NCBI GenBank assembly: GCA_947589495.1
Contig: CANQAK010000004.1
Location: 1-62,344, forward strand
Reading direction: 5' to 3'
DNA length: 62,344 bases
Source of the DNA: an uncultured Bacilli bacterium
Lineage (GTDB): Bacteria > Bacillota_I > Bacilli_A > RF39 > UBA660
Below, piece by piece: positions 1 to 62,344 of this stretch. The position numbers were made by a program, and so were the translations under genes. Numbering within the stretch: position 1 is the first letter of the stretch; every line of letters begins with the position of its first letter. The notes under the pieces were generated by a model. It saw only the letters and a program-made list of their open reading frames with translations, had not been told where the DNA came from and did not search any database.

Positions 1-159
1 TTATTTTTCTAAATTCCCCCCTCTTTTATCTGTCTAATCTATTGACATATCTCCCGTTAACTTTAAGTAAATTGTATTTTTTTTACACAAATTAAAATAC
101 GTTTTCCTTATTTTAGTGGAATAACGTCAATCATATTTAATTAAATAGTATAATTTTTA

Positions 160-30394: not shown

Positions 30395-30547
30395 GTTATA
30401 CCAACTTTCTATAATATTTTATCACATTTTTCTATATAATTCGCTATTTAAACTGTTATTTTGACATTTTTTTCATCTGGTTTACATTTTTTCACTATGA
30501 ATTTTAAAAAACTTATATTATAATATTACCTAAAGGAACTGATTAAT

Positions 30548-30931
30548 ATGCATAGAAATTTTGATGCCATTGACATTTTTTTTATCATTGTAATACTTAT
30601 TTATTTCTTTATATTGCTTTTATTCATAGTAATTTTTATTGATAAATATTTTAATATTGATAAAGAAAAAGAAGTAAAAGTTAAAAAGAAGAAACCTAAA
30701 ACTAAGAAAAAAAGTTCTGTTAAAAAAATTAATACTAAAAAACCAAGTATTAAAAATACAAAAAAAGATAAAGAAAAAACTATTCCAAGTCCAGTTAAAA
30801 ATAAAGTTAAAACTAAAAAATCTTCAACTTCAAATAAAAAATTAAGAGCTAATAAAACTAAGAAAAAAACACCATATAAAAGAAATTATAAAAATAATAT
30901 TTCTTATGTTAAAAATAATCCAAAAAAATAA
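30548..30931 (+). CDS. membrane-anchored lysine-rich hypothetical protein
   Basis: 127 aa with one TM helix and an extremely K-rich tail. Coding status is plausible (terminator at 30930..30962) but unproven. Confidence 0.4.
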   Translation: MHRNFDAIDIFFIIVILIYFFILLLFIVIFIDKYFNIDKEKEVKVKKKKPKTKKKSSVKKINTKKPSIKNTKKDKEKTIPSPVKNKVKTKKSSTSNKKLRANKTKKKTPYKRNYKNNISYVKNNPKK

Positions 30932-30962
30932 AAATACGTCAAAATGTATTTTTATTTTTTTT
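30930..30962 (+). terminator. intrinsic terminator
   Basis: Stem aaatac (30932..30937) pairs with gtattt (30946..30951), followed by a T-run. Confidence 0.5.
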
Positions 30963-31029
30963 ATATTTTAATTAAAAAGGAAGTGATGAGTAGCGTTGCC
31001 TATTCCAAATTTTTTAGAGAAATTCCATT

Positions 31030-31158
31030 TTGAAAGGAGCACAAAGTGCTTTTATTAAAGTCTTTTTAGTAATTATTTTTATTTTGCTATACATTATTAT
31101 TATATTAGTTATTAAAAACGGCCGTCTGCTTAATGTTGTTATACAACATTTAAATTAG
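31030..31158 (+). CDS. diverged third copy of small hydrophobic ORF (weak start)
   Basis: It occupies the same relative position as the 34-codon ORFs at 32835 and 34608. It encodes a 42-codon hydrophobic peptide (..FIKVFLVIIFILLYIIIILVIKNGR..) only from a TTG start. The well-placed AAGGAG+GTG at 31046 opens only a 7-codon frame. It may be decayed. Confidence 0.2.
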   Translation: MKGAQSAFIKVFLVIIFILLYIIIILVIKNGRLLNVVIQHLN

Positions 31159-31190
31159 CAATGAAACACATTTTCCAGACGGTGTAAAAC

Positions 31191-31276
31191 TCACGCTTCC
31201 TAATATTTAGGATACTCTATTTTTATATATTACAATCTTGTTTTGAATATTAAACTGAAGAAGTTTAATATTTTTT
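31191..31276. repeat. partial copy of the distal part of the ~0.5 kb inter-paralogue spacer
   Basis: cacgcttcctaatatt...tactctatttttatat(at)attacaat...tgaatattaaactgaagaagtttaatat is shared with 32978..33062 and, in its left part, with 34751..34798. Confidence 0.8.
31246..31272. other. AT-rich perfect hairpin 5 nt beyond the stop codon of paralogue 1
   Basis: aatattaaac-tgaagaa-gtttaatatt forms a 10-bp stem with a 7-nt loop. No U-run follows on the gene strand. Confidence 0.7.
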
Positions 31277-32533
31277 CTAACTTTTTATGTAGAATGGATC
31301 GGAACTTGTCCCTGCTCCCCCTAATTCTATATCAGACGTTAGATAGAAGACTGGGCGAATCGCATACGTATATTTCAAGGTGTTGTCGCTGATTCCGCCA
31401 AACTGATTCACAAACCACGCTTGGTAGAAAGGGTCCGAGCTACTCCATAGACCAATTCGCGACATGGTCCATTCATAGTCCGATGTTGTTCCCCCATTTT
31501 TTGAAATATGCATCCAGCCATTGTTTATACATTTTTGATATGTTTCTTGCCCTAAACGCATATGACAATTTGTTACGTTTGCTTGATAATAGTAATCATG
31601 TAAATATATTAATCCTATTGGTGCAGTATCACTCATTTGTTTCCATTTCTGATCTGTTATTAATTTATAATCTTTATCATAATATTGGGGTGCATCTTGT
31701 CCAGTCTCTATTCTATATGTTTGATCTGCACTTTCGATTAATGTTTCCTCATAATCATATCCTATATCTCCATACCACCATTCTTGTGGCTCTATTTTTC
31801 CTTTTATTTCTTCATTTAATGTACTTAAGAATGAATTACCATTTGTATTTAATTCTTTAAATAAGTCACTTTCTGGCCATTCGGGACAATCTCCTCCTTC
31901 ACAATAAACGTTAGTAGATGGGTCCACACTATATTTTGCATTCCATGCTTTTGTCCCTATGCTTTTTTGTTTCATCACTTTAATATTTCCTTCTGGAGTG
32001 ATTCCAATGATTCGATACATTTCATTAGATCCTGATGCACAATTTGCTTGTCCTATTTGCTTTAGGCATATATAGTTATTTACATTTGTTCCTTGATATC
32101 TATACATTCCTCCAACTAAATCTATACTCAATCCACTATCTGCTTGACTTTGTAGTGTTTGTAATGTTTGTGGTACTTTATCAAAATATAAATAACAATA
32201 TGATGTTTTATTTGTACTTACTGTTACTTTATTATTTTCCAAATCATATTCTAAACTGTTTTCTATTTTTTCTCCATTATTATCCATACATCCTGATTTT
32301 TCTTCATTTAACATATAACCTTCTCCTGGAAAACTTGATTCTTCTTTATACTGTCCATCTGTGCCTTTTACCATTATGGCAAACATACTATTTTTTTCTA
32401 CATCTACTACATCTTTTAACTTTACTTCATCTAATTGTGTTTGATATGCCGTATGTTTATGACATATTAAAAAGGTACTTACTGTTAGTATTACTCCTAT
32501 TACAAATATTACTGTAGTTTTTCTTTTCTCCAT
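31277..32533 (-). CDS. variable surface protein paralogue 1 (signal-anchored, C-terminal lectin-like domain with hypervariable segment)
   Basis: The track ORF starts at GTG 32545. The ATG at 32533 (MEKRKTT, GGTGA 8 nt upstream) matches the start of paralogue 2. Motifs shared with the other copies: GGMYRYQG, MYRIIGITPEGNIKVMKQ, CPEWPESD, WWYGD, GLIYLHDYYYQ, GWMHISKN, EWTMSR and RPVFYLTSDIELGGAG. Confidence 0.8.
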   Translation of the reverse strand: MEKRKTTVIFVIGVILTVSTFLICHKHTAYQTQLDEVKLKDVVDVEKNSMFAIMVKGTDGQYKEESSFPGEGYMLNEEKSGCMDNNGEKIENSLEYDLENNKVTVSTNKTSYCYLYFDKVPQTLQTLQSQADSGLSIDLVGGMYRYQGTNVNNYICLKQIGQANCASGSNEMYRIIGITPEGNIKVMKQKSIGTKAWNAKYSVDPSTNVYCEGGDCPEWPESDLFKELNTNGNSFLSTLNEEIKGKIEPQEWWYGDIGYDYEETLIESADQTYRIETGQDAPQYYDKDYKLITDQKWKQMSDTAPIGLIYLHDYYYQANVTNCHMRLGQETYQKCINNGWMHISKNGGTTSDYEWTMSRIGLWSSSDPFYQAWFVNQFGGISDNTLKYTYAIRPVFYLTSDIELGGAGTSSDPFYIKS

Positions 32534-32602
32534 TATATAATTCACCTTTTCTTTTTGTTAATAACTTACTATTATTTATTAACTCATCTATCCTATATGG
32601 TT

Positions 32603-32629
32603 ATTATATAATACCCCCCCCGGAGTCAA
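32603..32629 (-). promoter_or_regulatory. candidate sigma-A promoter of paralogue 1 with (G)8 in the spacer
   Basis: The minus strand reads TTGACT (32624..32629) - CC GGGGGGGG TATTA - TATAAT (32603..32608). The spacer is 15 nt. The homopolymer is at 32614..32621. Confidence 0.6.
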
Positions 32630-32834
32630 GTTTTAAAATTTATTTTGTTGTTAATTTTATGTTTTTTTTAAACATTCCATTTTTCTTGTGTCTTATTTTG
32701 ACTGGTTTTGTCGAAAGTATTTACAAATAAAAAATCCTATTATTTAATAGAGACTTATGGAAGTGTTGGTACTGACGTCACCTTTAAACTGATTTTCAGG
32801 GGGATTTATTTCTCAGGAAAGAGGTGAGACGGTT

Positions 32835-32939
32835 ATGAAAGCAAAAACTTTAAATAAGTTATTGTTATTAATAATAATAATTTTGTCCATTATTATTTTA
32901 ATAGACAAATTAAAAGACGTCGTCCTTATAGTAGGATAA
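32835..32939 (+). CDS. 34-aa hydrophobic peptide (candidate type I toxin-like small protein), copy A
   Basis: ATG with AGAGGTGA 7 nt upstream. The peptide is MKAKTLNKLLLLIIIILSIIILIDKLKDVVLIVG: a charged N-terminus, one TM helix and a charged tail. It is conserved at 34608..34712 with only hydrophobic substitutions. A candidate promoter TTGACT lies at 32698..32703. Confidence 0.5.
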   Translation: MKAKTLNKLLLLIIIILSIIILIDKLKDVVLIVG

Positions 32940-32987
32940 CGTCTATCTAAATATATAATTTAGGTGACGTGAAATATCACGCTTCCT
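32907..32987 (-). ncRNA. candidate antisense RNA overlapping the 3' end of small ORF A
   Basis: The minus strand carries a TTGTAA (33017..33022) - 17 nt - TATACT (32994..32999) promoter. Downstream are hairpin gcgtga-tat-ttcacgt, then hairpin 32915..32944 (agacgttatcc/ggacgacgtct) followed by UUUUAAUUU. It could alternatively be the 3' UTR and terminator of paralogue 2. Confidence 0.35.
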
Positions 32988-33033
32988 AATATTAGTATAC
33001 TCTATTTTTATATATATTACAATTCTTTTTTGA

Positions 33034-33058
33034 ATATTAAACTGAAGAAGTTTAATAT
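33034..33058. other. AT-rich perfect hairpin 5 nt beyond the stop codon of paralogue 2
   Basis: atattaaac-tgaagaa-gtttaatat forms a 9-bp stem with a 7-nt loop. It is the same element as 31246..31272. Confidence 0.7.
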
Positions 33059-33062
33059 CTTT

Positions 33063-34319
33063 CTAACTTGCTATGTAGAATGGTTCAGTTGTTGATCCTG
33101 CTCCTCCTAATTCTATATCGGATGTTAAATAGAATACTGGACGAACCGAATATTCATTTTTCAAGCTGTCCTTGCCGACACTGCCACTCGAAGTCACACG
33201 CCACGCATAGAAGTAAATACTTGAGCTTTCAGCTCGACCTATACGGGACATGGTCCATTCAGCTTGCTCGTTATCCGTAAATGAATTATCATTTTTTGAT
33301 ATGTGCATCCAACCGTTATCTTTACATTGTGTATGTGTATTGTTATCATAATGACAGATATTTGATGTTGATTGATAATAATAATCATGTAAATATATTA
33401 ATCCTATTTTTGCTTTGCTATTCATTTTTGCCCATTTTCCTGTTTCTATTGCTCCTTGTTTTAGTTTTGGATAATATTGACTGTCTACTTGACCTGTTTC
33501 TATTTGATATATTTCATCTGCTGTTTTATTTGCATAATCATAGTTTATATCACCATACCACCAATCCCAATCTTCTATTTTATTTTTTATATCACTAGAT
33601 AAATTACTTAAGAATGAATCACTATCTGCGTTTAATGTTTTATATATTTCACTATCTGGCCATTCTGGACAGCCACCATCATCACATTTGTATTTCTCTG
33701 TGGACGTTTTTTCATCATATTTTGTATTCCATACGAATGTATTTGTTCCATTATTTGTATATTTTGTTTGTTTCATTACTTTTATATTTCCTTCAGGAGT
33801 GATTCCTATGATTCGATACATTTCATCTGTTTTTTCTTTACAATTTGTATTATTTAAACTTCCTAAACAAATGTAATTATTTACATCTGCACCTTGGTAT
33901 CTATACATTCCTCCAACAGGATTTGTACTTAAACCACTGCCTTCTTTTCTTATATCGTCTACTGACAATTGTTTATCAAAATACAAATAACAATATGATG
34001 TTTGCCCTGTACTTACTATTACTTGTTGACTATCTTCATCATATGATAAACTATTTGGTATTAACTCGTTATTATTATCCATACACCCTGATTTATCTTT
34101 ATTTAGTTTGTAACCTTTTTCTGGAAAACTATCACTTGGTGCATATTCTCCATTTTCTTTTACCATTATTGCAAACATATTATTATCTTTTATATCTTTT
34201 AATTTTACTTCATCTAATTGTGTTGTTTGATATGCCGTATGTTTATGACATATTAAAAAGGTACTTACTATTAACATTACTCCTATTACAAATATTATTG
34301 TTGTTTTTCTTTTCTCCAT
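33063..34319 (-). CDS. variable surface protein paralogue 2
   Basis: 418 aa. It has the same architecture and motif islands as paralogue 1. The first ~40 aa are near-identical. Confidence 0.8.
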   Translation of the reverse strand: MEKRKTTIIFVIGVMLIVSTFLICHKHTAYQTTQLDEVKLKDIKDNNMFAIMVKENGEYAPSDSFPEKGYKLNKDKSGCMDNNNELIPNSLSYDEDSQQVIVSTGQTSYCYLYFDKQLSVDDIRKEGSGLSTNPVGGMYRYQGADVNNYICLGSLNNTNCKEKTDEMYRIIGITPEGNIKVMKQTKYTNNGTNTFVWNTKYDEKTSTEKYKCDDGGCPEWPDSEIYKTLNADSDSFLSNLSSDIKNKIEDWDWWYGDINYDYANKTADEIYQIETGQVDSQYYPKLKQGAIETGKWAKMNSKAKIGLIYLHDYYYQSTSNICHYDNNTHTQCKDNGWMHISKNDNSFTDNEQAEWTMSRIGRAESSSIYFYAWRVTSSGSVGKDSLKNEYSVRPVFYLTSDIELGGAGSTTEPFYIAS

Positions 34320-34391
34320 ATTATATAATTCACCTTTTCTTTTTTGTTAATAACTTACTATTATTTATTAACATCTCTATCTTATAAGGTT

Positions 34392-34419
34392 ATTATATAA
34401 TACCCCCCCCCGGAGTCAA
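34392..34419 (-). promoter_or_regulatory. candidate sigma-A promoter of paralogue 2 with (G)9 in the spacer
   Basis: The minus strand reads TTGACT (34414..34419) - CC GGGGGGGGG TATTA - TATAAT (34392..34397). The spacer is 16 nt. The homopolymer is at 34403..34411. Confidence 0.6.
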
Positions 34420-34607
34420 GTTTCAATTTTTATTTTGTTGTTAACTTTATGTTTTTCTTGTGTCTTATTTTGACTGGTTTTGTCGAAAGTATTTACAAAT
34501 AAAAAATTCTATTATTTAATAGAAACTTATGGAAGTGTTGGTACTGACGTCACCTTTAAACTGATTTTCAGGGGGATTTGGTTCTTCAGAAAAGAGGTGA
34601 GACGGTT

Positions 34608-34712
34608 ATGAAAGCAAAAACTTTAAATAAGTTCTTGTTATTAATTATATTAATTTTGTTACTATTTATTTTAGTAGACAAATTAAAAGACGTCGTCCTT
34701 ATAGTAGGATAA
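34608..34712 (+). CDS. 34-aa hydrophobic peptide (candidate type I toxin-like small protein), copy B
   Basis: The peptide is MKAKTLNKFLLLIILILLLFILVDKLKDVVLIVG. It has the same RBS (AGAGGTGA) and the same N- and C-terminal residues as copy A. A candidate promoter TTGACT lies at 34470..34475. Confidence 0.5.
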   Translation: MKAKTLNKFLLLIILILLLFILVDKLKDVVLIVG

Positions 34713-34760
34713 CGTCTATCTAAATAAATAATTTAGGTGGCGTGAAATATCACGCTTCCT
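34680..34760 (-). ncRNA. candidate antisense RNA overlapping the 3' end of small ORF B
   Basis: The minus strand carries TTGTAA (34790..34795) - 17 nt - TATACT (34767..34772). Terminator-like hairpin 34688..34717 is followed by a U-rich run. No large gene lies upstream on this strand, so here a read-through 3' UTR cannot explain it. Confidence 0.4.
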
Positions 34761-34828
34761 AATATTAGTATACTCTATTTTTATATATATTACAATATCT
34801 TGTTTTAGCATTTACATTTCAAAATTAT

Positions 34829-34861
34829 AAAAAAAATAATTTTACTTTGCTAGTAAAATTA
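34829..34861 (-). terminator. intrinsic terminator of the lipoprotein gene
   Basis: A 10-bp stem, taattttact (34837..34846) with agtaaaatta (34852..34861), is followed by a U8 run on the minus strand. Confidence 0.75.
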
Positions 34862-34863
34862 CT

Positions 34864-35403
34864 TTAATTAACATCATAATTATAGACACCATGAATTTTT
34901 AATAAATCGTTTTCAGTAGGTTGTTCTACAACATACTCTTTATCTTCTTTAGATACTGTAAATGTAATTGTATAATCTACTTTATCAGTAGTATCTTTCA
35001 TTTTATCTAATTTAAAATCCATATATTTTTCAACACTATAATCGCCATTCTCATCATTAAATTCTTCACGATTATTTTCTAAATATATTGAAGCATCATC
35101 TTGAGCTTTATATAAATCATATACAGTAATTTTTACAGTAACATAACTTACATCATTATCATATTCTTCCTCTAAAATTTCATAACTTAGATCTTTATAT
35201 TGTTTTTTTAAAATATCACGATATTTATCTTTTTGAGATTCACTTAAACTTTCTTTATCAACAACACTTTCTAAATCAACTAAAACTTCACTATCTAAAG
35301 ATTTATATTTTTTTAAATAAGTATCAACTGCCCCTCTTGCAGTATCTTTTCCACAACCAGTAAGAAGAACTAAAACTAGAAACAATGCCCATAACTTTTT
35401 CAT
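34864..35403 (-). CDS. lipoprotein, function unknown
   Basis: 179 aa with a signal peptide and lipobox LLTGC. The mature part is acidic. Confidence 0.65.
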   Translation of the reverse strand: MKKLWALFLVLVLLTGCGKDTARGAVDTYLKKYKSLDSEVLVDLESVVDKESLSESQKDKYRDILKKQYKDLSYEILEEEYDNDVSYVTVKITVYDLYKAQDDASIYLENNREEFNDENGDYSVEKYMDFKLDKMKDTTDKVDYTITFTVSKEDKEYVVEQPTENDLLKIHGVYNYDVN

Positions 35404-35444
35404 TAAATCACATCCTAGTTTTATTATTTATCAAAAAGAAAAAA

Positions 35445-36077
35445 TTATACATTATTATATGATAATTTAATTAATTCATATATATGTAGTTCTTTTTCTG
35501 AAAGGGGTAAACTTAACTTCTTTTTCATTAATTCATACATTTTATTAACATCATCAATTAATTCATCAAACCATTCTAAATAAACATACTTAAGTTTACT
35601 AAACTCTTTTCTTTTAAACATATTATCTATTTCTAATTTAATTATTTTTTTTATTTTTAATTCTTGTCTAGTTTCCCTATTAACAACATCTTTCTCAATA
35701 ATTTTATAATCTATTTTACTTAAACTAACATTATAAATAAATTCATTAATATTAAGTTCATCTTCCATTATTAAACTACTTTTATTTATAAGTTTACCAT
35801 TTTCTTGAAATTCTAAAGCTATATTATTTTTACCATCACTAAATATACATGTATAAGCTAAATATTCATTTTGTTTTAATTTAGTTTTATTTTCTATCTT
35901 TTTTAGAAATTCTTCTGGTACTTCAATAATCTTTGATATCATATTATTTATAGTTTTAGAATCAACATGTATCAAAGGTATTTTTTTAACATATTCAATT
36001 GTATCATCTTTATCCCATTCATAAAACATACAATATTTTTCTTGAAAATTTAAAAGTACATCATAATAATAGTCCAT
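35445..36077 (-). CDS. conserved hypothetical protein
   Basis: 210 aa and soluble. The N-terminal YYDVLLNFQEKYCMFYEWDKDDTIEYVKKIPLIHV resembles a Firmicute family I cannot name. Confidence 0.5.
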   Translation of the reverse strand: MDYYYDVLLNFQEKYCMFYEWDKDDTIEYVKKIPLIHVDSKTINNMISKIIEVPEEFLKKIENKTKLKQNEYLAYTCIFSDGKNNIALEFQENGKLINKSSLIMEDELNINEFIYNVSLSKIDYKIIEKDVVNRETRQELKIKKIIKLEIDNMFKRKEFSKLKYVYLEWFDELIDDVNKMYELMKKKLSLPLSEKELHIYELIKLSYNNV

Positions 36078-36285
36078 TTTTCTTTTTCCTTCCTAATAAT
36101 ATAATTATAATAATACTTCCAATAAAGAATAAATCACAATAAATACTTCTAATAATAAAATAAACAAATTCAAGAAAACTATACCCTATAATAAATAAAT
36201 TTAAATATAAAATTATAAAAAATAACCCAATTACAGCCATAATAAAACTAATTAAAAACAACATTATATAAAACATACTTATCAA
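36061..36285 (-). CDS. small membrane protein
   Basis: 74 aa with two TM helices. Coding status is uncertain. Confidence 0.35.
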   Translation of the reverse strand: MISMFYIMLFLISFIMAVIGLFFIILYLNLFIIGYSFLEFVYFIIRSIYCDLFFIGSIIIIILLGRKKKNGLLL

Positions 36286-36342
36286 TATATTTTATTTACA
36301 AATTAATAAAAATATTATATAATTAAATTAGGTGATAATAAT

Positions 36343-37152
36343 ATGGATTATATAACATGTATAATATTAGGACTTATTCAAGGAATAACTGAACCACTTC
36401 CTATTTCTTCAAGTGGACATGTATTTTTATTTAAAAATATGTTTAATACTACTATTTTTAATGATTCTTTTAATTTTGAAATTATTTCTAATTTTGGTTC
36501 ATTTTTAGCTATACTATTTATTTTTAGAAAAGAAATAATTACCCTTATTAAAAATTTCTTTTTATATATATTTAGTTCTAAAAAAAGAAAGAATAATAAA
36601 AATGGTTTTGTTTATATAATGAAACTTATTATAAGTACTATACCTGTAGGTATAACTGGTATACTATTTAATGATTATTTAGAAACTCATTTTAATTCAT
36701 TAAATATGTTAGCATTTACATTTTTATTTACAGCTTTAATGCTTTATTTAGTTAGAAATATTAAAGGTACTAAAAATAATGATGAAATTACTTTTAAAGA
36801 TGCTATAATAATTGGTTTATTTCAAGCAATTACAATTATACCTGGAATAAGTAGAAGTGGTACTACTTTAGTAGCATGTTTACTTTGTAAATTAAAAAGA
36901 GATGATGCTTTAAAATATACTTTTATGTTATATTTTCCAGTTAGTTTAGGAACTATGTTATTAAAAGTACCAGAATTAATTAATACCCCAAATAGTTTAT
37001 TAATGCCTTATTTAATAGGAATGTTAATTGCATTAATAGTAACATATTTATCATATTTATGGTTAAGTAATATTGTTAAAAAAGGTAAATTATGGAAATT
37101 TTCTATTTATTGTTTATGTTTAGCTTTATTTATCTTTATATATTTTAGATAG
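36343..37152 (+). CDS. uppP: undecaprenyl-diphosphate phosphatase
   Basis: 269 aa. BacA/UppP motifs are present: GLIQGITEPLPISSSGH and PGISRSGTT. Confidence 0.85.
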   Translation: MDYITCIILGLIQGITEPLPISSSGHVFLFKNMFNTTIFNDSFNFEIISNFGSFLAILFIFRKEIITLIKNFFLYIFSSKKRKNNKNGFVYIMKLIISTIPVGITGILFNDYLETHFNSLNMLAFTFLFTALMLYLVRNIKGTKNNDEITFKDAIIIGLFQAITIIPGISRSGTTLVACLLCKLKRDDALKYTFMLYFPVSLGTMLLKVPELINTPNSLLMPYLIGMLIALIVTYLSYLWLSNIVKKGKLWKFSIYCLCLALFIFIYFR

Positions 37153-37175
37153 AACTTTATGTTCTATTTTTTTTT
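37151..37175 (+). terminator. intrinsic terminator of uppP
   Basis: Hairpin agaac-tttat-gttct is followed by a T-run. Confidence 0.6.
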
Positions 37176-37185
37176 AATAAAAAAA

Positions 37186-37244
37186 GGGAGTTAGTTAGAC
37201 TCCCAGGGTTAAGTTAAGTCTATTTTAACGTCTTCGTTGACGAG
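37186..37244. repeat. structured ~60-nt 3' element, copy 1 (orphan)
   Basis: gggagTtagttagActccc agggttaagttaagtctattttaacgtcttcgttgacgag. Relative to copies 2 and 3, the first hairpin keeps its stem while the loop differs. Confidence 0.8.
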
Positions 37245-37378
37245 TAAATAAAAATTCATTTACTTATAGTATTTTATAATATTTATTATTATTTGTAAAT
37301 CCTAAATTTTTATACACTTATATTGTATCAATTTTATTGAATAATGTAAAATACTTTTAATAATATTTCATAAAAAAA

Positions 37379-37438
37379 GGGAGGTCGTTACTTCTCCCAG
37401 GGTTAAGTTAAATCTATTTTAACGTCTTCGTTGACGAG
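37379..37438. repeat. structured ~60-nt 3' element, copy 2 (directly downstream of paralogue 3)
   Basis: gggaggtcgttacttctccc agggttaagttaaatctattttaacgtcttcgttgacgag. On the minus strand, GGGAG..CTCCC followed by a U-run acts as a terminator for 37466..39598. Confidence 0.8.
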
Positions 37439-37465
37439 TTTTTTTTATTTTACTTATTTAGTATT

Positions 37466-39598
37466 TTATGAATTTGCTATGTAGAATGGTTCTGAGGTTG
37501 TACCTGCTCCTTCTAACGTTATATCAGAGGTTAGATAGAAGACTGGTCGTACATCATTCTTAGCCTCTAAGCCGTTTCCGTTGACACTGCCTTCCTGATT
37601 TACGATCCACGTATTAAACCAATCGTACGCTCTATCTCGACCAACACGAGTCATCGTCCATTCATAATTCGACGTTGTTTCTGCATTTTTACTCATATGC
37701 ATCCAACCATTATCTTTACATACTCCAGATTGGTTAGTTTTAGGATGACAATTATCTGATGTTGATTGATAATAATAATCATGTAAATACATTAATCCTA
37801 TTTTTGCTTTATTACTCATTTTTTGCCATCTTCCTGTTTCTACTTCACCAGTTACCCTTTTTGGATAATAATGGCTATCTAGTTGACCTGTTTCTATCTT
37901 CCAAATCTCTTTCGCTGATGTATTTGCATAATCAATATATATATCTCCATAATACCATTCCCAGTCTTCAATTTTATTCTGTATTCCACTAGTCAATTTA
38001 CTTAAAAACGAATCACTATTTCCGTTTAATGTTGTGTATATAGTACTTGCTGGCCATTCCGGGCATCCTCCACCTAGTCCACATGTTGAATCTTTATAGT
38101 TTGTATTCCATGCATATTTTCCTATACTTGTTTGTTTCATTACTTTTATATTTCCTGATGGTGTTACTCCTATAATTCTATACATATTATCATCGTAGCC
38201 ATTTTCTTTTGCACTAGTACATTCATTTGATCCTACTCCGCTCAAACATATAAAGTTGTTTACATTATTACCTTTTAATGTGTCTGTTCCTTGATATCTA
38301 TATATTCCTCCGACTAATGTCGAACTTAATGTTTTTGTTGTATCTTTACTTCTTAATGTGTTTTCTAAATCTGTTACTATTGTAAATGGTTCTTCTAATG
38401 TTCCTTTTCCTTCTACTTCTATATCATTTTTCAAATAGAAAACAGGGCGAACCACATACATATTGTTTAACTCATTCCCGCCAGCCACAACACCATTCGG
38501 GTTCACACTCCACGCACGGAAAATAGAACCAGTGGTACCACTCCGACCCTCACGCGACATAGTCCATTCTATATCAGATGATGTTCCTCCATTCTTTGAT
38601 ATATGCATCCATCCTTGACTTACACAATCTTCATAATTATTATTTTTTGTGCTATGACAACTCTCTTGGTTTGCTTGGTAATAATAATCATGTAAGTACA
38701 TTAATCCTATATTGGCTTTTTCTTCCATTTGAATCCATCTTTTGTCTGTTACTTCTTCTTTATTATTTGAATTATGTCCATAGTATTTTGTATCTTTTTG
38801 ACCTGTTTCTACTTGATATACTTCATTTGCTATTAGTGTTCCTACAAAATTAAAGTGCATATCACCATACCACCACTTTTGGGGTTCTATTTTATTTTGT
38901 ATATTTTTATCTAATGTATTATAAAATGTATTATTTAATGTTGTAAATATATCACTTTCTGGCCATTCTGGACAACTATCATCTCCACACTTTGAATCAT
39001 TAGAATTTTCGTTCCATCTATATTTACTTGTTCCACTATTTGTAAATTTTGTTTGCTTTATTATCTTTATATTTCCTTCTGGTGTTACTCCAATTATCCT
39101 GTACATATCATCACTTTGATTTAAACAATCACTTCCTAAACATATATAATTATTAACTTTATCATTTGTTCCTTGATATCTATACATTCCTCCGATTAAA
39201 ATTTTACTTAATGTATTTGTTGTGTCAACTTCTCTTAATTGTTTTACCATTTTAGATTCTTTGTCAAAATATAAATAACAATAGGATGTTTTATTTGAAA
39301 TAAGTGTTACTTTATTACTTTCTGAATCATATGTTAAACTGTTTTCAATTTTGACTCCATTATTATCCATACATCCTGATTTTTCTGTATTTAATACATA
39401 ACCTTTTTCAGGAAACGTCGATTGTTCAGTATATTCTCCACTATCATTTTGAAGCATTATCGCAAACATATTATTTTTTTCTACTTCTTTCAAACTTACT
39501 GTATCCAATGTTGCATTTGCCGATTTATTTTTGTTTATAAAAACTATACTTGTTGTTAATAATAATATTAATATAGAAATTATTCCAATTTTTTTCAT
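37466..39598 (-). CDS. variable surface protein paralogue 3 with two tandem C-terminal modules
   Basis: 710 aa: a signal anchor plus N-domain, then two complete copies of the GG(M/I)YRYQG...RPVFYL...EPF(T/Y)I module. The first ends near aa 410 at EPFTIVT. Each module has its own hypervariable segment. Confidence 0.8.
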   Translation of the reverse strand: MKKIGIISILILLLTTSIVFINKNKSANATLDTVSLKEVEKNNMFAIMLQNDSGEYTEQSTFPEKGYVLNTEKSGCMDNNGVKIENSLTYDSESNKVTLISNKTSYCYLYFDKESKMVKQLREVDTTNTLSKILIGGMYRYQGTNDKVNNYICLGSDCLNQSDDMYRIIGVTPEGNIKIIKQTKFTNSGTSKYRWNENSNDSKCGDDSCPEWPESDIFTTLNNTFYNTLDKNIQNKIEPQKWWYGDMHFNFVGTLIANEVYQVETGQKDTKYYGHNSNNKEEVTDKRWIQMEEKANIGLMYLHDYYYQANQESCHSTKNNNYEDCVSQGWMHISKNGGTSSDIEWTMSREGRSGTTGSIFRAWSVNPNGVVAGGNELNNMYVVRPVFYLKNDIEVEGKGTLEEPFTIVTDLENTLRSKDTTKTLSSTLVGGIYRYQGTDTLKGNNVNNFICLSGVGSNECTSAKENGYDDNMYRIIGVTPSGNIKVMKQTSIGKYAWNTNYKDSTCGLGGGCPEWPASTIYTTLNGNSDSFLSKLTSGIQNKIEDWEWYYGDIYIDYANTSAKEIWKIETGQLDSHYYPKRVTGEVETGRWQKMSNKAKIGLMYLHDYYYQSTSDNCHPKTNQSGVCKDNGWMHMSKNAETTSNYEWTMTRVGRDRAYDWFNTWIVNQEGSVNGNGLEAKNDVRPVFYLTSDITLEGAGTTSEPFYIANS

Positions 39599-39654
39599 GC
39601 AACTTCTCCTTACATCAAATTTGTTTATCGTATTATGTTACGAGTTTCAACATA

Positions 39655-39683
39655 ATTATAATCGTAAAATGCTACGATGTCAA
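39655..39683 (-). promoter_or_regulatory. consensus sigma-A promoter of paralogue 3
   Basis: The minus strand reads TTGACA (39678..39683) - 17 nt - TATAAT (39655..39660). An AAGGAG RBS precedes the ATG at 39598. There is no homopolymer. Confidence 0.65.
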
Positions 39684-39700
39684 TAAGGAGTTTAAAAAAT

Positions 39701-39919
39701 ATGAAAATAGATGTTAAAAAGTATAAAACAAATGAAATATTTAAGTTTATAAGACAAGCTACTAATTTGACTCAAGAAGAATTAGCTAAAAAAGTTAATA
39801 TTAGTAAAAGTTCTATTGAGAAATATGAATATGGTACTGTTAATTATACATTTGAAACGCTTGTTAAAATAGCTAAAGCTTGTGATTTAGATATATTTAT
39901 AGTAAGTAAAAAGAAATAG
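39701..39919 (+). CDS. XRE-family helix-turn-helix transcriptional regulator
   Basis: The HTH_3 pattern is FIRQATNLTQEELAKKVNISKSSIEKYEYG. The track start is 39677. The ATG at 39701 with AAGGAG 10 nt upstream is preferred. Confidence 0.7.
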   Translation: MKIDVKKYKTNEIFKFIRQATNLTQEELAKKVNISKSSIEKYEYGTVNYTFETLVKIAKACDLDIFIVSKKK

Positions 39920-39933
39920 GTTACTATTTCTTT

Positions 39934-41160
39934 TTACTTACATATAGCTAGATAATATTTCTTTTTACCTTTTTTAATTAAATATACTTTATTATCTATA
40001 GCATTTTCTTTTTTAACTAAATATGTTGGATCATTTATTTTTTTATTATTTAAACTAATTGCATTACCCCCTACAAGTTCTCTTGCTTCTCTTTTACTAG
40101 AACATATTTTACTATTTACAAGTAAATCTTCTAAAAGACAATCTTCTTCTAAATCAATATGTTCCATGTCTTTAAAATTATTTAAGATATCATTAGCAGA
40201 TAATTTAGTTATATCTTCACTAAATAAAGCTTTACTCATTATTTTAGCTTTATTAAATTCTTCTTCTCCATGTAAGAAAGTAATTATTTCTTTAGCAAGT
40301 ATTTCTTGAGCCATTCTTTTTTCTGGTTCTTTTTTATGTTCTTCTTCTATTTTATCAATTTCTTCTTTAGATAAAAATGTTAACATCTTTAAATATTTAA
40401 TAACTATTTTATCACTAGTATTAATTAAATATTGGTATAATTCATAACTAGATGTTTTATTTTTATCAAGCCATAAGGCATTGCCTTCAGTTTTACCAAA
40501 TTTAACTCCATTAGCATCAAGAACAAGTGGCATAGTCATACCATATAATTCAACATCTTCTTTTTTACGTGCTAATTCTATACCAGTTGTAATATTACCC
40601 CATTGATCTGATCCTGCAACTTGAAGAGTAACACCCTTATCTTTATATAGTTGGACAAAGTCCATACCTTGTAAAATAGTATAAGCAAACTCACAAAAAG
40701 TAATACCTGATTCTAATCTTCTATTAATAATATCTTTATCTAACATATAATTAACATTAATATATTTACCATAATCTCTTAAAAAATCTAAAACTGATAA
40801 ATTTTTAGTCCAGTCATAATTATTTACAACTTCAAAACCAAATATTTCTTTTGCTTGACGAGTCAATCCTTCAACATTTTTTTGTACAAGTTCTTTAGAA
40901 ATCATTTGTCTTTCATTAGATGGTTTAGGATCTCCGATTAACCCTGTTGCTCCCCCAATTAATAAAATAGGTTTATGACCGTACTTAGCAAGCCTAGAAG
41001 CAATTAAAAATGATGAAAAATGACCAATATGCATTGAATCTGCAGTGGGATCAGTTCCAATATAAAAAGTTAATTTCTCTTCATTTAATTTCTTTTCTAA
41101 AAGAGGACTACTAATATCTTTAATAAGTCCACGCCATTTTAAATCTTCAAAACAATTCAT
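39934..41160 (-). CDS. tyrS: tyrosine--tRNA ligase
   Basis: 408 aa. It has the HIGH motif (MHIGH), the KMSKS-type motif KFGKTEG and a C-terminal S4-like domain. A T-box leader with UAC triplets lies upstream. Confidence 0.9.
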   Translation of the reverse strand: MNCFEDLKWRGLIKDISSPLLEKKLNEEKLTFYIGTDPTADSMHIGHFSSFLIASRLAKYGHKPILLIGGATGLIGDPKPSNERQMISKELVQKNVEGLTRQAKEIFGFEVVNNYDWTKNLSVLDFLRDYGKYINVNYMLDKDIINRRLESGITFCEFAYTILQGMDFVQLYKDKGVTLQVAGSDQWGNITTGIELARKKEDVELYGMTMPLVLDANGVKFGKTEGNALWLDKNKTSSYELYQYLINTSDKIVIKYLKMLTFLSKEEIDKIEEEHKKEPEKRMAQEILAKEIITFLHGEEEFNKAKIMSKALFSEDITKLSANDILNNFKDMEHIDLEEDCLLEDLLVNSKICSSKREARELVGGNAISLNNKKINDPTYLVKKENAIDNKVYLIKKGKKKYYLAICK

Positions 41161-44929: not shown

Positions 44930-47863
44930 CTACTTATATCTTTTACAATCTTTTACTTCAAATTTTACTTCTCCAACTGACTTTTTACCAGCGTTATTAC
45001 TTTGATTATAATCTCGGTAATTTCTAAATTTTAATGAAATATCCCACTTATGAGTAGTTATTTCTCTTGAACTTGCATTATTTTCAATAGATATTTCTCC
45101 GATTTTATATGAAGTATTTTCAATAATATCGACATCATATGTATGTTTAGCAGTAACACTATTTGTTGTTATATAACCATCTAACTCTAATATTAATTGA
45201 TTATTTAAAGTAGCCATATATCCTCTGTCATCTATATACTTGTTTTGGAAACTATTTTCTTTAGCAGTATAATTAACATAATAAGTACATATTGTTCTAT
45301 CTTTATTAGAAGTTAGTGATATTGAAGAACTTGTCTTTTCACTTGTAATGTCTATGTGGTCATTAGTTCCAACATTTTCTTTAGACATTTCATCATCAGT
45401 AACTAATAATTTTACTTCTCCACCATTAGCTAATGTAACTAATGCATCTACATCCCCATCATCATTTTCATCATCAGGTTTAGAATCATCACAATTCTTA
45501 TCACATTGGCCATCGCCATCTTCATCGATGTTTTTATCAGGGGTTCTATCACCATCAGTATCACAATTTAAATCACATTTATTGTCGCTATTGGTATCAC
45601 AGTTTAAATCACACTTACCATCATTATCGATATCACAATTTGTATCACATGTACCATCATTATTATTATCACAGTTTTTGTCACATATGCCATCATCGTT
45701 AGTATCAACATTTTTATCAGGGACTTTATCACCATTGGTATCACAATTCTTATCACATACACCATCTTTGTTAGTGTCACAATTTAAATCGCATTGGCCA
45801 TTACCAGTAGTATCACAATTTAAATCGCATTGTCCATCATTATTGGTGTCACAATTTTTGTCACACTTATTATCATTGTTGGTATCACAGTTTGTATCGC
45901 ATTTACCGTCTTTATTTGTGTCACAATTTAAATCACATTTACCGTCATTATTTGTATCACAATTTAAATCACATTGTCCATCATTATTTGTGTCACAGTT
46001 TTTGTCACACTTATTATCACCGTTGGTATCACAATTCTTATCACAAGTACCATCTTTATTTGTGTCACAATTTAAATCGCATTGTCCATCATTATTGAAA
46101 TCACAATTCTTATCACACTTATTATCGTTATTAGTATCACAATTTCTATCACAAATGCCATCACCATTATTGTCACAATTCAAGTCACAATTACCATCAT
46201 TGTTGTTATCACAATTCAAGTCGCATTTATCATCGTTATTAGTATCACAATTTCTATCGCACTTATTATCACCGTTGGTATCGCAGTTCTTATCGCATTT
46301 ACCGTCTTTATTTGTATCACAATTTAAATCACACTTGCCATCATTATTTGTATCAACATTAGTGTCTGGTTTTTTATCTCCATTGGTATCACAGTTTAAA
46401 TCACATTTACCATCTTTATCAGTATCTTCATTTAAATCTGGATCTCCATCTCCATCTGTATCTATATTTAAATCAGGGAATCCATCATTGTTGTTATCAC
46501 AATTTAAATCGCATTTACCGTCTCCATCTTTATCAACATTTAAATCCGGTATGTAATCTCCGTCAGTGTCACAATTTAAGTCACACTTACCATCACCATC
46601 AGTATCTTCATTAACTTTATTTTTATCAGGGATGCCATCTCCATCTGTATCTATATTTACATCTGGTTCTCCATCACCATCGATATCAACATTTACGTCT
46701 GGTTTAAAATCTCCATTTTTATCACAATTTAAATCGCATTTACCATCGTCATTTTTATCAACATTTAAATCTGGTTCTCCATCACCATTCATATCAACAT
46801 TTACATCTGGAATATTATCGCCATTTTTATCACAGTTTAAATCACATTTACCATCTCCGTCAGTATCTTGATTTAATAAATTTCTGTCTGGCTTTCCGTC
46901 AGAATCAGTGTTAATATCTGGTTTGCCATCGCCATTGGTATCTATTCCATAGTTTCCACTCGTATCATCATCGATATTAAAGTCTGGAATACCATCTCCA
47001 TTAACATCTATATTTATATCAGGGTTACCATCATTATTTGTATCTATATTTACATCTGGTTTATTATTTCCATTTGTATCAACATTCAAATCTGGTTTTA
47101 AATCTCCATCTTTATCAATATTTAGGTCTGGTGTACCATCACCATTGACATCAACATTTAAATCTGGTTTGCCATCGCCATCTTTATCGATATTTAAATC
47201 TGGAATATTATCACCATTTTTGTCACAGTTTAAATCGCATTTATTGTCTCCATCAGTATCTTGATTTAATAAATTTCTATCTGGTTTACCATCAGAATTA
47301 GTTTTAATATCCGGTTTACCATCACCATTGGTGTCTATTTCATAATTTCCATCAGTATCATCATCAATATTAAAGTCTGGAATACCATCACCATTAACAT
47401 CTATATTTATATCAGGGATACCGTCTCCATCTATATCAATATTTAAATCAGGTTTCTTATCTCCATCAGTATCTATATTTATATCAGGGATACCATCGCC
47501 ATCTAAATCAATATTATAATCTGGATAATTGTCATTATTAACATCACAGTTTAAATCACATTTACCATCTTTATCAGTATCTTGGTTAATAAGATTTTTA
47601 TCAGGGATTCCATCACCATTTGTATCTATATTAAAAATAGCTTTATTAGTTTTTCCATAAGTAATATTTGCATCAGGTTTTCCATCATTATTTAAATCAG
47701 CATTAAGTTGATTACTTAAATTAACACCTGTACCAAAAAAATCCATTGTAAATGTTGTAAATAATAATATTAAAGTTAAAAGCATTATTATTATCATAAT
47801 AACAATAGCCATTAATTTTTTCTTTTTTAATTCTACATAATCCATATTTAAATCTACATTCAT
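44930..47863 (-). CDS. 977-aa secreted/anchored protein made of Asp/Asn-rich calcium-binding-type repeats, many with paired cysteines
   Basis: An N-terminal TM helix is followed by about 740 aa of D-x-(D/N)-x-D-G-x-P-D and C-D-x-N-C-D-x-N-x-D-G-x repeats. These resemble thrombospondin type 3 repeats. A ~180-aa non-repetitive C-terminal domain follows. Confidence 0.75.
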   Translation of the reverse strand: MNVDLNMDYVELKKKKLMAIVIMIIIMLLTLILLFTTFTMDFFGTGVNLSNQLNADLNNDGKPDANITYGKTNKAIFNIDTNGDGIPDKNLINQDTDKDGKCDLNCDVNNDNYPDYNIDLDGDGIPDINIDTDGDKKPDLNIDIDGDGIPDINIDVNGDGIPDFNIDDDTDGNYEIDTNGDGKPDIKTNSDGKPDRNLLNQDTDGDNKCDLNCDKNGDNIPDLNIDKDGDGKPDLNVDVNGDGTPDLNIDKDGDLKPDLNVDTNGNNKPDVNIDTNNDGNPDINIDVNGDGIPDFNIDDDTSGNYGIDTNGDGKPDINTDSDGKPDRNLLNQDTDGDGKCDLNCDKNGDNIPDVNVDMNGDGEPDLNVDKNDDGKCDLNCDKNGDFKPDVNVDIDGDGEPDVNIDTDGDGIPDKNKVNEDTDGDGKCDLNCDTDGDYIPDLNVDKDGDGKCDLNCDNNNDGFPDLNIDTDGDGDPDLNEDTDKDGKCDLNCDTNGDKKPDTNVDTNNDGKCDLNCDTNKDGKCDKNCDTNGDNKCDRNCDTNNDDKCDLNCDNNNDGNCDLNCDNNGDGICDRNCDTNNDNKCDKNCDFNNDGQCDLNCDTNKDGTCDKNCDTNGDNKCDKNCDTNNDGQCDLNCDTNNDGKCDLNCDTNKDGKCDTNCDTNNDNKCDKNCDTNNDGQCDLNCDTTGNGQCDLNCDTNKDGVCDKNCDTNGDKVPDKNVDTNDDGICDKNCDNNNDGTCDTNCDIDNDGKCDLNCDTNSDNKCDLNCDTDGDRTPDKNIDEDGDGQCDKNCDDSKPDDENDDGDVDALVTLANGGEVKLLVTDDEMSKENVGTNDHIDITSEKTSSSISLTSNKDRTICTYYVNYTAKENSFQNKYIDDRGYMATLNNQLILELDGYITTNSVTAKHTYDVDIIENTSYKIGEISIENNASSREITTHKWDISLKFRNYRDYNQSNNAGKKSVGEVKFEVKDCKRYK
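45490..46370. repeat. 36-nt (12-codon) tandem coding repeats
   Basis: About twenty units of CD.NCD.N.DG. lie back to back. Nucleotide-level periodicity is visible (gtatcacaatttaaatcacat...). Confidence 0.8.
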
Positions 47864-61620: not shown

Positions 61621-61670
61621 CTAAGAAATTATATGAATAACAAATGAAAAAATGTTAAAACAATTAAAAA

Positions 61671-61730
61671 GGGAGGTCGTTACTTCTCCCAGGGTTAAGT
61701 TAAGTCTATTTTAACGTCTTCGTTGACGAG
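61671..61730. repeat. structured ~60-nt 3' element, copy 3 (directly downstream of the truncated paralogue)
   Basis: It differs from copy 2 (37379..37438) at a single position. A minus-strand GGGAG..CTCCC hairpin plus U-run forms a terminator. Confidence 0.8.
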
Positions 61731-61741
61731 TTTTTTATTTG

Positions 61742-62305
61742 TTATGAAACTATGTAGAATGGATCATCTATCGTTCCTGAACCTTTTAATCCTATATTTT
61801 TCTTCAAGTAAAATACCGGGCGAATTGCCAACTTAGCGTTCTGATTGGAGGTGAAGAGATCGCCACTAGAAGATACAACCCATGAATAGTATTTATCACT
61901 GTTACTATTCATTGGGCCTGTCCGCGTCATCATCCATTCACTCTCTGAACCTCCATTTTTTGTTATATGCATCCAACTTCCTTTACATGTTATTTCATAA
62001 TCTGTTCTACAACTTGTATTATGTCCTTCTTTGCTTCCTGAATATGCATAATCATGTATATACATTAATGCTATCTTTGATTGTTTACCTTTCGTCCATG
62101 TTTCGTTTGTAATTAATTCTCCACTTGCATTATAATATTGTGTTGTTGTTTTCCCTGTTTCTATCTTATATGCTTCTTCTGTGGTTATATTTTCATTTTG
62201 TACTAAATTCCACCCTACATCCCCATAAATATAATTCCATTCTTCTATTTTTCTTTGTATTCCACTATTGTTAATGGTACTATAAAAATGTAAGAAAAAG
62301 TCCAA
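61742..62305 (-). CDS. 5'-truncated member of the variable surface protein family (C-terminal module only; possible pseudogene or silent cassette)
   Basis: 187 aa counted from a TTG. An in-frame stop lies at 62324..62326 just upstream. Homology starts at the ...IQRKIEEWNYIYGD motif, so the signal anchor, N-domain and first half of the module are missing. The window ends at 62344, so upstream context is unseen. Confidence 0.55.
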   Translation of the reverse strand: MDFFLHFYSTINNSGIQRKIEEWNYIYGDVGWNLVQNENITTEEAYKIETGKTTTQYYNASGELITNETWTKGKQSKIALMYIHDYAYSGSKEGHNTSCRTDYEITCKGSWMHITKNGGSESEWMMTRTGPMNSNSDKYYSWVVSSSGDLFTSNQNAKLAIRPVFYLKKNIGLKGSGTIDDPFYIVS

Positions 62306-62344
62306 ATAAAACTGTAGGATTTCCTACATAATTAAAAGGACTTA

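Follow-up and report, generated by a model that had tools for sequence, protein, structure and literature searches.

Candidate phase-variable surface-protein genes with G-tract promoters and a toxin-antitoxin-like spacer module in an uncultured gut Bacilli bacterium

Introduction

The locus described here raises the question of why the DNA between two genes should be better conserved than the genes themselves. It lies in contig CANQAK010000004.1 of assembly GCA_947589495.1, from an uncultured Bacilli bacterium, of which positions 1 to 62,344 were analysed (hereafter "the window"). Gene A (31277..32533) and its paralogue gene B (33063..34319) are ORFs (open reading frames) of 418 amino acids (aa) each on the minus strand, whose stop codons are 1786 bp apart. 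The original prediction, made by visual inspection of the sequence, had correctly defined this pair and the length of its repeat unit. It regarded the ~0.5 kb spacers as non-coding DNA whose conservation contradicts neutrality, proposed diversifying selection or recombination on the genes, and assigned the locus to the contingency (antigenic variation) type. The reading that we favour, with a probability of about 60%, is that of a phase-variable, recombining family of surface-protein genes organised in cassette units, each with a toxin-antitoxin (TA)-like module, a promoter carrying a G tract, a 5′ untranslated region (5′UTR) followed by a membrane anchor, and a variable ectodomain.

The relatives surveyed for comparison were 80 loci (887 kb) of GTDB species representatives, which are rabbit and goat gut "Bacilli bacterium" metagenome-assembled genomes (MAGs). 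Individual loci and contigs are designated by L followed by a number.

Sequence divergence along the two repeat units

In a global alignment of the two units, scored in 60-nt windows, the spacer and the start of the gene (first ~100 nt) have an identity of 0.90-0.97. Identity drops to 0.48-0.80 within the gene body and recovers to 0.80-0.90 at its end, in the final ~100 nt of the gene and in ~70 nt downstream from it. This sliding-window profile bears out the predicted conservation of the spacer, but the conserved block is not confined to it: the block begins ~35 codons before the end of the upstream gene, takes in the whole spacer and extends ~40 codons into the downstream gene. Its 3′ part includes a perfect 10-bp hairpin (ATATTAAACT-5-AGTTTAATAT; 33034..33058, strand not assigned) found just past the gene B stop codon, with an identical copy at 31247-31272 after gene A.

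Of the 504 columns in the alignment of the spacer proper, 448 are matches; there are 29 substitutions in 477 aligned bases (p = 0.061; Jukes-Cantor K = 0.063). The two spacers also differ by six indels: an 18-nt indel (32667-32684), a G homopolymer difference (G8 at 32614-32621 versus G9 at 34403-34411), an A5/A6 difference, and indels of 1, 2 and 4 nt. The scattered substitutions, the 18-nt indel and the 1-nt homopolymer change had been seen by eye while a few small indels had been overlooked. The 18-nt indel is located in a local tandem repeat (17 nt x 2.5; 32630-32672) and is therefore probably a product of slippage or duplication.

Proteins A and B have 57% amino acid identity. Synonymous (dS) and nonsynonymous (dN) divergence, computed by the NG86 method, are 0.52 and 0.31 for the whole gene and drop to 0.10 and 0.04 in codons 1-36, whereas dS of the gene-body segments is 0.37-0.70. 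Divergence at synonymous sites of the gene body thus exceeds that of the spacer by a factor of 5-10, as the prediction required. Its claim of diversifying selection fared less well, the pairwise dN/dS ratio being ~0.6 and not above 1.

Concerted evolution and mosaicism

The spacer does not qualify as non-coding DNA whose conservation contradicts neutrality: it holds a promoter, a 5′UTR and a predicted cassette composed of a small ORF and an antisense RNA (all described below). These elements are ~67-80% identical between species and 94% identical between the A and B spacers. At 52 of the 53 cassette columns that vary in both other species, A and B carry the same nucleotide. This agreement, together with the dS of 0.10 in codons 1-36, shows that the conserved block is young. 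It originated by recent duplication or gene conversion, that is by concerted evolution, and not by constraint alone. Concerted evolution or recent common ancestry of the spacer had been put forward as one possibility, and the synonymous sites of codons 1-36, conserved to the same degree as the spacer, support it.

The ectodomain-coding parts of the genes are much older than the conserved block and are mosaics of segments shared with other paralogues. The most informative of these is paralogue C (37466..39598, minus strand; 710 aa), which has two tandem ectodomains (C1 and C2) and mosaic segments in common with A and B. The informative sites at which A sides with B number 63 of 70 at the conserved ends and 120 of 247 in codons 63-424, where the similarity of A is split about evenly between B and C1. 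A is closest to C1 in codons 60-105 (81-89% identity). B is C2-like in codons 198-394 and closest to the second domain of C in codons 300-345 (75-88%), while its codons 1-100 are closest to a gene found in another genomic context, at L084 (82-97%). The maximum chi-square test sustains the proposal of recombination on the genes: for both mosaic breakpoints (A/B/C1 and B/A/C2) none of 300 permutations reached the observed value (p<1/300). A partial fourth paralogue (D; 61742..62344, minus strand), which runs past the window end, was left out of the mosaic comparison because its alignment is out of frame. Sharing of sequence by blocks, for example VPQTLQTLQS versus QLSVDDI/QLSVNDL, is seen also among homologues from other assemblies.

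It is very improbable that the spacer was kept purely by purifying selection on its elements, with genes evolving fast under relaxed or positive selection and no recombination. Such an explanation can invoke the many conserved elements of the spacer, but these same elements are much less similar between species than between A and B, and the columns at which A equals B do vary from species to species. A higher dS cannot result from selection on the protein, which would leave the difference between codons 1-36 and the gene body unaccounted for; the significant mosaic breakpoints also speak against it. For patterns of this kind, with conserved spacers and divergent genes, gene conversion is a better explanation than selection alone.

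Incorrect assembly of a repeat from metagenomic reads might also have produced the tandem array or made its spacers nearly identical. Contigs of the same strain were recovered from short-read assemblies only, and they break at the repeat. Contigs L001-L003 from ENA match parts of the window at 99.9-100%, and L001 ends in spacer B, at window position 34764. L198 reaches ~980 nt beyond the flanking gene, which codes a 571-aa protein; its expected end is ~31375, in the 3′ end of gene A (derived from gene coordinates, not aligned). Look-ups of exact proteins, made for the gene B product, for NCBI proteins closely homologous to it and for the 34-aa peptide described below, yielded no further assemblies. 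As same-strain short-read assemblies break near the borders of the conserved block, the tandem array is missing from most public assemblies of this organism. We give an artefact hardly any credence in spite of these contig ends: the copies are distinguishable by the 29 substitutions and six indels of their spacers and by genes that are more than 30% different, L001 matches the window at 100% as far as its breakpoint, and tandem genes, G-tract promoters and an intergenic cassette are found in independent assemblies of other species (L054, L004, L006, L031).

G-tract promoters

Each gene is preceded by a putative sigma-70-type promoter, TTGACT-CC-G8/9-TATTA-TATAAT, located 72-75 nt 5′ of the start codon. 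The gene B promoter (34392..34419, minus strand) has the −35 sequence TTGACT (34419-34414), CC, G9 (34411-34403), TATTA and the −10 sequence TATAAT (34397-34392). Its hexamers are spaced by 16 nt and its score in a consensus scan is 11/12. The gene A promoter (32603..32629, minus strand) has the same sequence with G8 (32621-32614) and a spacing of 15 nt; it was unreported by the scan, which accepts spacings of 16-18 nt only. The 1-nt homopolymer change between the spacers is thus the G run between −35 and −10. These G8 and G9 runs are the sole G/C homopolymers of at least 7 nt in the 62-kb window. The promoter is followed by a conserved 5′UTR with the Shine-Dalgarno (SD) sequence AAAGGTG (34320..34391 for gene B, minus strand; 32534-32602 for gene A), which is 91% identical in L084. 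The combination of promoter, 5′UTR and signal anchor is found 91-97% identical before the L084 gene, in an unrelated context and lacking the small-ORF cassette. Its behaviour is thus that of an "expression module" that is portable and homogenised.

The pattern TTGAC(A/T)...G(n)...TATAAT was found upstream of family genes at 45-53 places in the relatives, whose proteins are 30-40% identical. Their 887 kb contain 62 G/C runs of at least 6 nt, of which ~55, including every run of at least 7 nt, are found in the context of this promoter. A pattern scan of metagenome contigs added 112 stretches, mostly in human-gut contigs of 22-30% GC content, where the typical form is TTGAC(A/T)T-G8-T(A/G)TATTA-TATAAT-AACCTTATAAAG. 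Pooling gave 139 promoters in which both hexamers are conserved and the spacing is mostly 15-17 nt; the tract is G6 in 5, G7 in 7, G8 in 110 and G9 in 17 of them, as read from consensus assemblies of MAGs and metagenomes. A sequencing artefact of poly-G type was ruled out, since over 100 independent assemblies have the tract inside a conserved promoter.

Sixty-two of the 112 ORFs found downstream of the pooled promoters match the family profile, and the remainder includes a second family. A hydrophobic segment, resembling a membrane anchor or signal, is present at the N-terminus of 107 of the 112. The length of the tract differs among paralogous promoters inside one MAG and, across contigs, within groups of promoters with near-identical flanks (93-94% or more). 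In eight such groups (40 sequences) five tract-length variants occur in ~10 nt versus 19 indels in 300 nt of flanks, an enrichment of indels in the G tract of ~8-fold per nucleotide. We take the G tract to be a clade-wide and length-polymorphic feature of what are probably promoters of genes for membrane-anchored or secreted proteins. The contingency character first attributed to the locus is thereby largely upheld, on grounds other than those originally given: a G8/G9 promoter tract that recurs in 139 promoters and varies in length.

A simpler view is that of an ordinary tandem duplication in which G8 is a fixed promoter element (a regulator site or a structural feature), the paralogues are old, their flanks were recently homogenised and phase variation does not take place. 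The uniformity of the tract fits this view well, since G8 is found in 110 of the 139 promoters and is kept at a total spacing of 15 or 16 nt, and some of the G9 variants are T-to-G substitutions that leave the length unchanged. Yet a G8 run in a genome of 24% GC is intrinsically prone to slippage, the tract ranges from G6 to G9 between paralogues as well as between contigs whose promoters are nearly identical, and it has more indels per nucleotide than its flanks. The tract is, moreover, placed exactly where spacing controls promoter strength and is almost exclusive to genes for proteins with a hydrophobic N-terminus, the class that is switched in known contingency systems. On this balance we consider a fixed G8 element unlikely, while regarding it as a serious alternative to slippage-driven switching.

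Some individual variants were recorded. At ~9800 in L079 the G run is interrupted (GGGAGGGG) and may represent a "locked" form. A T-to-G substitution yields G9 with unchanged spacing in L091, L100 and L106, and in L166 the T that follows G8 is lost. The proteins of the second family encoded behind a G8 promoter are 600-715 aa long and occur in L089, L090, L137, L157, L161 and other human-gut contigs. They have the conserved motifs SGANAPVLASNMIPVYYDE...WVWIPRF...SSRFVITNE and N-termini such as ...SYALFSFTKTS and ...AYRFSASGT, which we take to be reminiscent of SipW-type signals.

The surface proteins

Both proteins contain all eight motif islands listed in the original prediction, and across 16 homologues the majority of the island residues vary little or not at all. 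An AlphaFold model of the gene B protein was obtained with a pLDDT of 87.8 from a 74-sequence alignment, which was used instead of an earlier one of 16 sequences that gave a poor model (pLDDT 58). In the model the N-terminal transmembrane helix comprises residues 3-31, the small beta domain residues 49-116 and the globular domain residues 138-416; the linker that follows the helix is of low confidence. A and B are thus most probably surface proteins held in the membrane by an N-terminal signal anchor, with a variable ectodomain of ~380 aa. The N-terminus (MEKRKTTIIFVIGVMLIVSTFLICHKH) has no canonical [LVI][ASTVI][GAS]C lipobox by eye, and the N-terminal Cys is missing in paralogues such as P0013, P0016 and C. 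No significant tandem repeats were detected by TRF in the coding sequences of genes A or B.

Foldseek related the model to DUF6273 proteins of gut phages (E 7.5e-9 to 1e-4) and to the Thomasclavelia ramosa IgA protease structure 9qa6 (E 4.5e-6), with modest TM scores of 0.3-0.6. The predicted fold of the A/B family is accordingly of the DUF6273/C-type-lectin-like type. The N-terminal domain of this protease, ThomasA, is annotated as DUF6273 (PMC12402451), and DUF6273 domains were described as C-type-lectin-like targets of diversity-generating retroelements (DGRs) in phages (PMC10743442). In scans of Pfam and NCBIfam the surface proteins gave no significant family, with no Pfam match at E≤0.01, and a profile search of PDB sequences gave no match. 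Sub-threshold matches to PF19789 were found in 8 of 16 close homologues (best E 3e-4) and a few relatives carry precomputed PF19789 matches; the window proteins themselves are not members of PF19789 at the sequence level. The possibility that the genes are DGR targets, prompted by DUF6273, was rejected: there is no reverse transcriptase among the window ORFs scanned and no template repeat, the repeats of the region being found only between paralogues.

The predicted small-ORF and antisense RNA cassette

Each spacer contains an ORF for a hydrophobic 34-aa peptide (MKAKTLNK...DKLKDVVLIVG) with a strong SD sequence, on the strand opposite to the surface gene. Small ORF B (34608..34712, plus strand) codes MKAKTLNKFLLLIILILLLFILVDKLKDVVLIVG and has the SD sequence AAAGAGGTG, and small ORF A (32835..32939, plus strand) codes the 34-aa peptide MKAKTLNKLLLLIIIILSIIILIDKLKDVVLIVG. 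Homologues are found in L054, in a diverged copy within the window, and in L057. The predicted toxin-like transcription unit of spacer B (34492..34761, plus strand; 32720-32988 in A) starts with the promoter TTTACA (34492-34497), 17 nt, TTTAAT (34515-34520). Its predicted mRNA (34522-34761) is ~240 nt long and structured, with a 5′UTR of ~85 nt, and is closed by a helix between its 5′ and 3′ ends in which compensatory changes are observed between species. The z-score of its fold is −5.0 relative to shuffled controls.

An antisense RNA is predicted on the minus strand (34681..34795; ~32908-33022 in A) from the promoter TTGTAA (34795-34790), 17 nt, TATACT (34772-34767). This RNA of ~80 nt (34760-34681) would be convergent with the small-ORF mRNA, complementary to its 3′ end, and formed by two hairpins, the second being a GC-rich terminator followed by UUUU (fold z-score −7.1 versus shuffled controls). 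The hexamers and 17-nt spacing of the antisense promoter are kept in L054 and L057, two rabbit-gut MAG loci, and in the third window copy. The TTTACA-17-TTTAAT promoter and the SD of the small ORF are likewise conserved in L054 and L057, and an alignment that also takes in the third window copy shows conservation of this promoter, of the ~85-nt 5′UTR and of the ORF. In all, four or five copies of the cassette have kept the convergent promoter and the terminator hairpin. The third, diverged copy (30961..31249, plus strand; nhmmer E=1.4e-50) is found downstream of gene A, and its first ~55 nt, beside this gene, have kept ~90% identity with the other copies. The opening stretch of the window (78-132) holds a decayed remnant of the cassette 3′ end (...HKLKYVFLILVE*, followed by hairpin-like sequence) with 78% identity to the spacer copies.

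This architecture is that of a predicted type I TA-like module. Pfam and NCBIfam hold no family for the 34-aa peptides, no known toxin family was matched, and a search of Rfam over 30400-40000 gave no match in the spacers at E≤1. The cassette also carries a caution: spacers of AT-rich genomes that are taken to be "non-coding" can conceal modules of a small ORF and an antisense RNA.

The cassette is divergent from the surface gene in the window and co-directional with it in L054, L031 and L057, an arrangement that might suggest an invertible or mobile DNA switch controlling the surface gene. We rejected this possibility as scarcely credible. Neither inverted repeats flanking the element nor a recombinase among the scanned window ORFs were found, both window copies have the same orientation, and the promoter of the surface gene is outside the element. 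A shufflon of the Vsa/Vpma type was considered as well; no convincing inverted repeats exist around the spacer elements, the scanned window ORFs include no recombinase, and the paralogues of the window are all on one strand.

Other paralogues and the genomic setting

The promoter of paralogue C (39655-39683) is a perfect TTGACA-17-TATAAT that has no G tract, contains the palindrome-like sequence ATCGTAGCATTTTACGAT, and adjoins a divergent XRE-type helix-turn-helix (HTH) gene (39677-39919). Many family genes of the relatives that have no G tract also show an operator-like promoter, several of them beside a divergent gene. The family thus seems to have two regulatory modes, one with G-tract promoters and the other with operator-like promoters devoid of the tract. 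An element of ~80-95 nt (CTCGTCAACGAAGACGTTAAAATAGAnTTAACTTAACCCTGGGAG...CTCCC-TTTTTTT; a small hairpin and a terminator) is present on the minus strand at 37366-37460, 37172-37266 and 61666-61744, that is in two copies 194 nt apart after paralogue C and in one after the partial paralogue at the window end. It is found after family genes in seven loci of other species; a check of coordinates places it directly after the gene in four of them, L042, L049 and L054 included, and further downstream in L019 and L070. No Rfam match was obtained for this element.

The window is chromosomal DNA with a GC content of 24%. It encodes topoisomerase subunits, a large polysaccharide-synthesis cluster, BacA, TyrRS, BipA and an SH3/dockerin protein, and the closest relatives of its ParE/GyrB-type protein are all from Bacilli bacterium MAGs. 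The array is adjoined by an ORF of 127 aa (30548-30931) with an N-terminal transmembrane segment and an extremely lysine-rich tail (KKKKPKTKKKSSVKK...), which was called as a gene in the independent assembly L198 too. Another ORF (44930-47863; 977 aa) is rich in internal repeats, with a DNA identity of 63-70%, and has no Pfam match; it may code another repetitive surface protein.

A possible mechanism of surface variation

As judged from the sequence, a separate G-tract promoter would serve each family member. If the strands slip and mispair in the G run, the spacing between the −35 and −10 hexamers (15, 16, 17 nt) would change and individual members would thereby be switched on or off. The conserved 5′ and 3′ blocks could provide the homology arms for segmental gene conversion, by which the ectodomains would be reshuffled. 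Promoter slippage and gene conversion acting together would generate a combinatorially variable cell surface. The small-ORF/antisense cassette was probably homogenised along with the promoter; its role is perhaps selfish stabilisation or the supply of homology for recombination, or it may be unrelated to surface variation.

Several observations weigh against this reading. G8 (79% of the promoters) dominates at both 15- and 16-nt spacing, which would be expected of a sequence-specific role of G8 no less than of a spacing switch, and low-coverage consensus sequences of MAGs and metagenomes may contain homopolymer errors. About 45% of the family genes of the relatives have no G tract; paralogue C is of this kind, with an operator-type promoter beside the HTH gene. 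The ON/OFF switching is itself what we infer from the promoter sequences. Regarding recombination, the best internal donors are just 81-89% identical, and conversions are therefore either not very recent or fed by donors found elsewhere in the genome. A dN/dS of ~0.6 does not demonstrate positive selection. Finally, the TA interpretation is derived from the sequences and predicted structures of five copies, of which two are almost the same; the start of the small ORF is disrupted in the L057 homologue, and the peptide matches no known toxin family.

A broader proposal, to which we would give somewhat less than an even chance, is that a clade of very low-GC gut Bacilli of rabbit, goat and human shares a contingency promoter, TTGAC(A/T)-N0-3-G8-N5-8-TATAAT. 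This promoter would precede many genes for membrane-anchored or secreted proteins per genome, from at least two protein families, and slippage occurring independently in each copy would create a combinatorially phase-variable surface. In some lineages the TA-like module is interleaved with the genes and homogenised with the promoter, and it may help to keep the array stable or serve as homology in the shuffling of ectodomains.

If the G tracts do switch expression, these uncultured yet abundant gut bacteria, human-gut relatives included, would carry a large and undescribed repertoire of phase-variable surface proteins. It would then matter for the evasion of immunity (IgA), for resistance to phages and for the persistence of strains in the gut. 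The G8 promoter would also provide a simple sequence signature for locating contingency genes in metagenomes.

Comparison with known systems

No earlier description of the G-tract promoter or of the surface-protein family in these bacteria was found in the literature searched. In Mycoplasma hyorhinis vlp and M. mycoides vmm, homopolymer or dinucleotide tracts in the promoter region switch expression; in the Vlp system the promoter of each member carries its own homopolymer, whose indels switch transcription (PMC10502178, citing Citti & Wise 1995). The present array resembles Vlp as a clustered multigene family of surface proteins with a homopolymer in each member's promoter, a conserved 5′UTR and signal anchor, and a variable ectodomain.

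The vlp genes, too, combine a highly conserved 5′ non-coding region and signal sequence with divergent external domains. The differences are also clear. The tract is G8/G9 here and A17-20 in Vlp. The Vlps are lipoproteins, whereas the proteins studied here have a signal anchor and no lipobox by eye. In-frame tandem repeats for size variation are absent, the ectodomain being a folded lectin-like domain of ~380 aa according to the model. Switching is in our case predicted from sequence, and the host is a gut lineage with BacA and an SH3/dockerin protein. If the reading is correct, a Vlp-like strategy previously tied to wall-less pathogens operates in gut bacteria.

Contingency promoters of Neisseria and Haemophilus (porA, opc, hifA/B) carry a repeat tract in the spacer between −35 and −10, and the poly-G/C tracts of Neisseria are typically 8-11 long. 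Vmm shares with the present promoters a simple-sequence tract in the promoter spacer, which in Vmm alters hexamer spacing and the transcription of the surface protein (PMC10502178). Those systems concern single or few unrelated loci per genome; here, by contrast, one promoter design is found across many paralogues, at least one further protein family and many species.

The TA-like module is similar in architecture to Firmicutes type I systems with a 3′-overlapping antisense RNA, such as TxpA/RatA, BsrG/SR4 and Fst/RNAII. It has in common with them a hydrophobic peptide (~30-60 aa there, 34 aa here), a structured mRNA with 5′-3′ pairing, and a predicted short, convergent antisense RNA that covers the 3′ end and has an intrinsic terminator. 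Unlike known type I modules it has no sequence match to toxin families, and it constitutes the spacer of a surface-gene array.

In its predicted fold the ectodomain is similar to the DUF6273 proteins, represented by gut-phage DGR targets and by the N-terminal domain of the T. ramosa IgA protease. The fold of the array would thus be one that gut-phage DGRs diversify and that is present in an IgA protease. With no reverse transcriptase or template repeat nearby, diversification would rely here on recombination and phase variation and not on a DGR. Taken together, the array corresponds to a known type of organisation, that of a contingency family with simple-sequence repeats in its promoters and gene-conversion mosaics; what appears to be new is the poly-G tract, the lectin-like ectodomain, the uncultured gut lineage and the TA-like spacer module.

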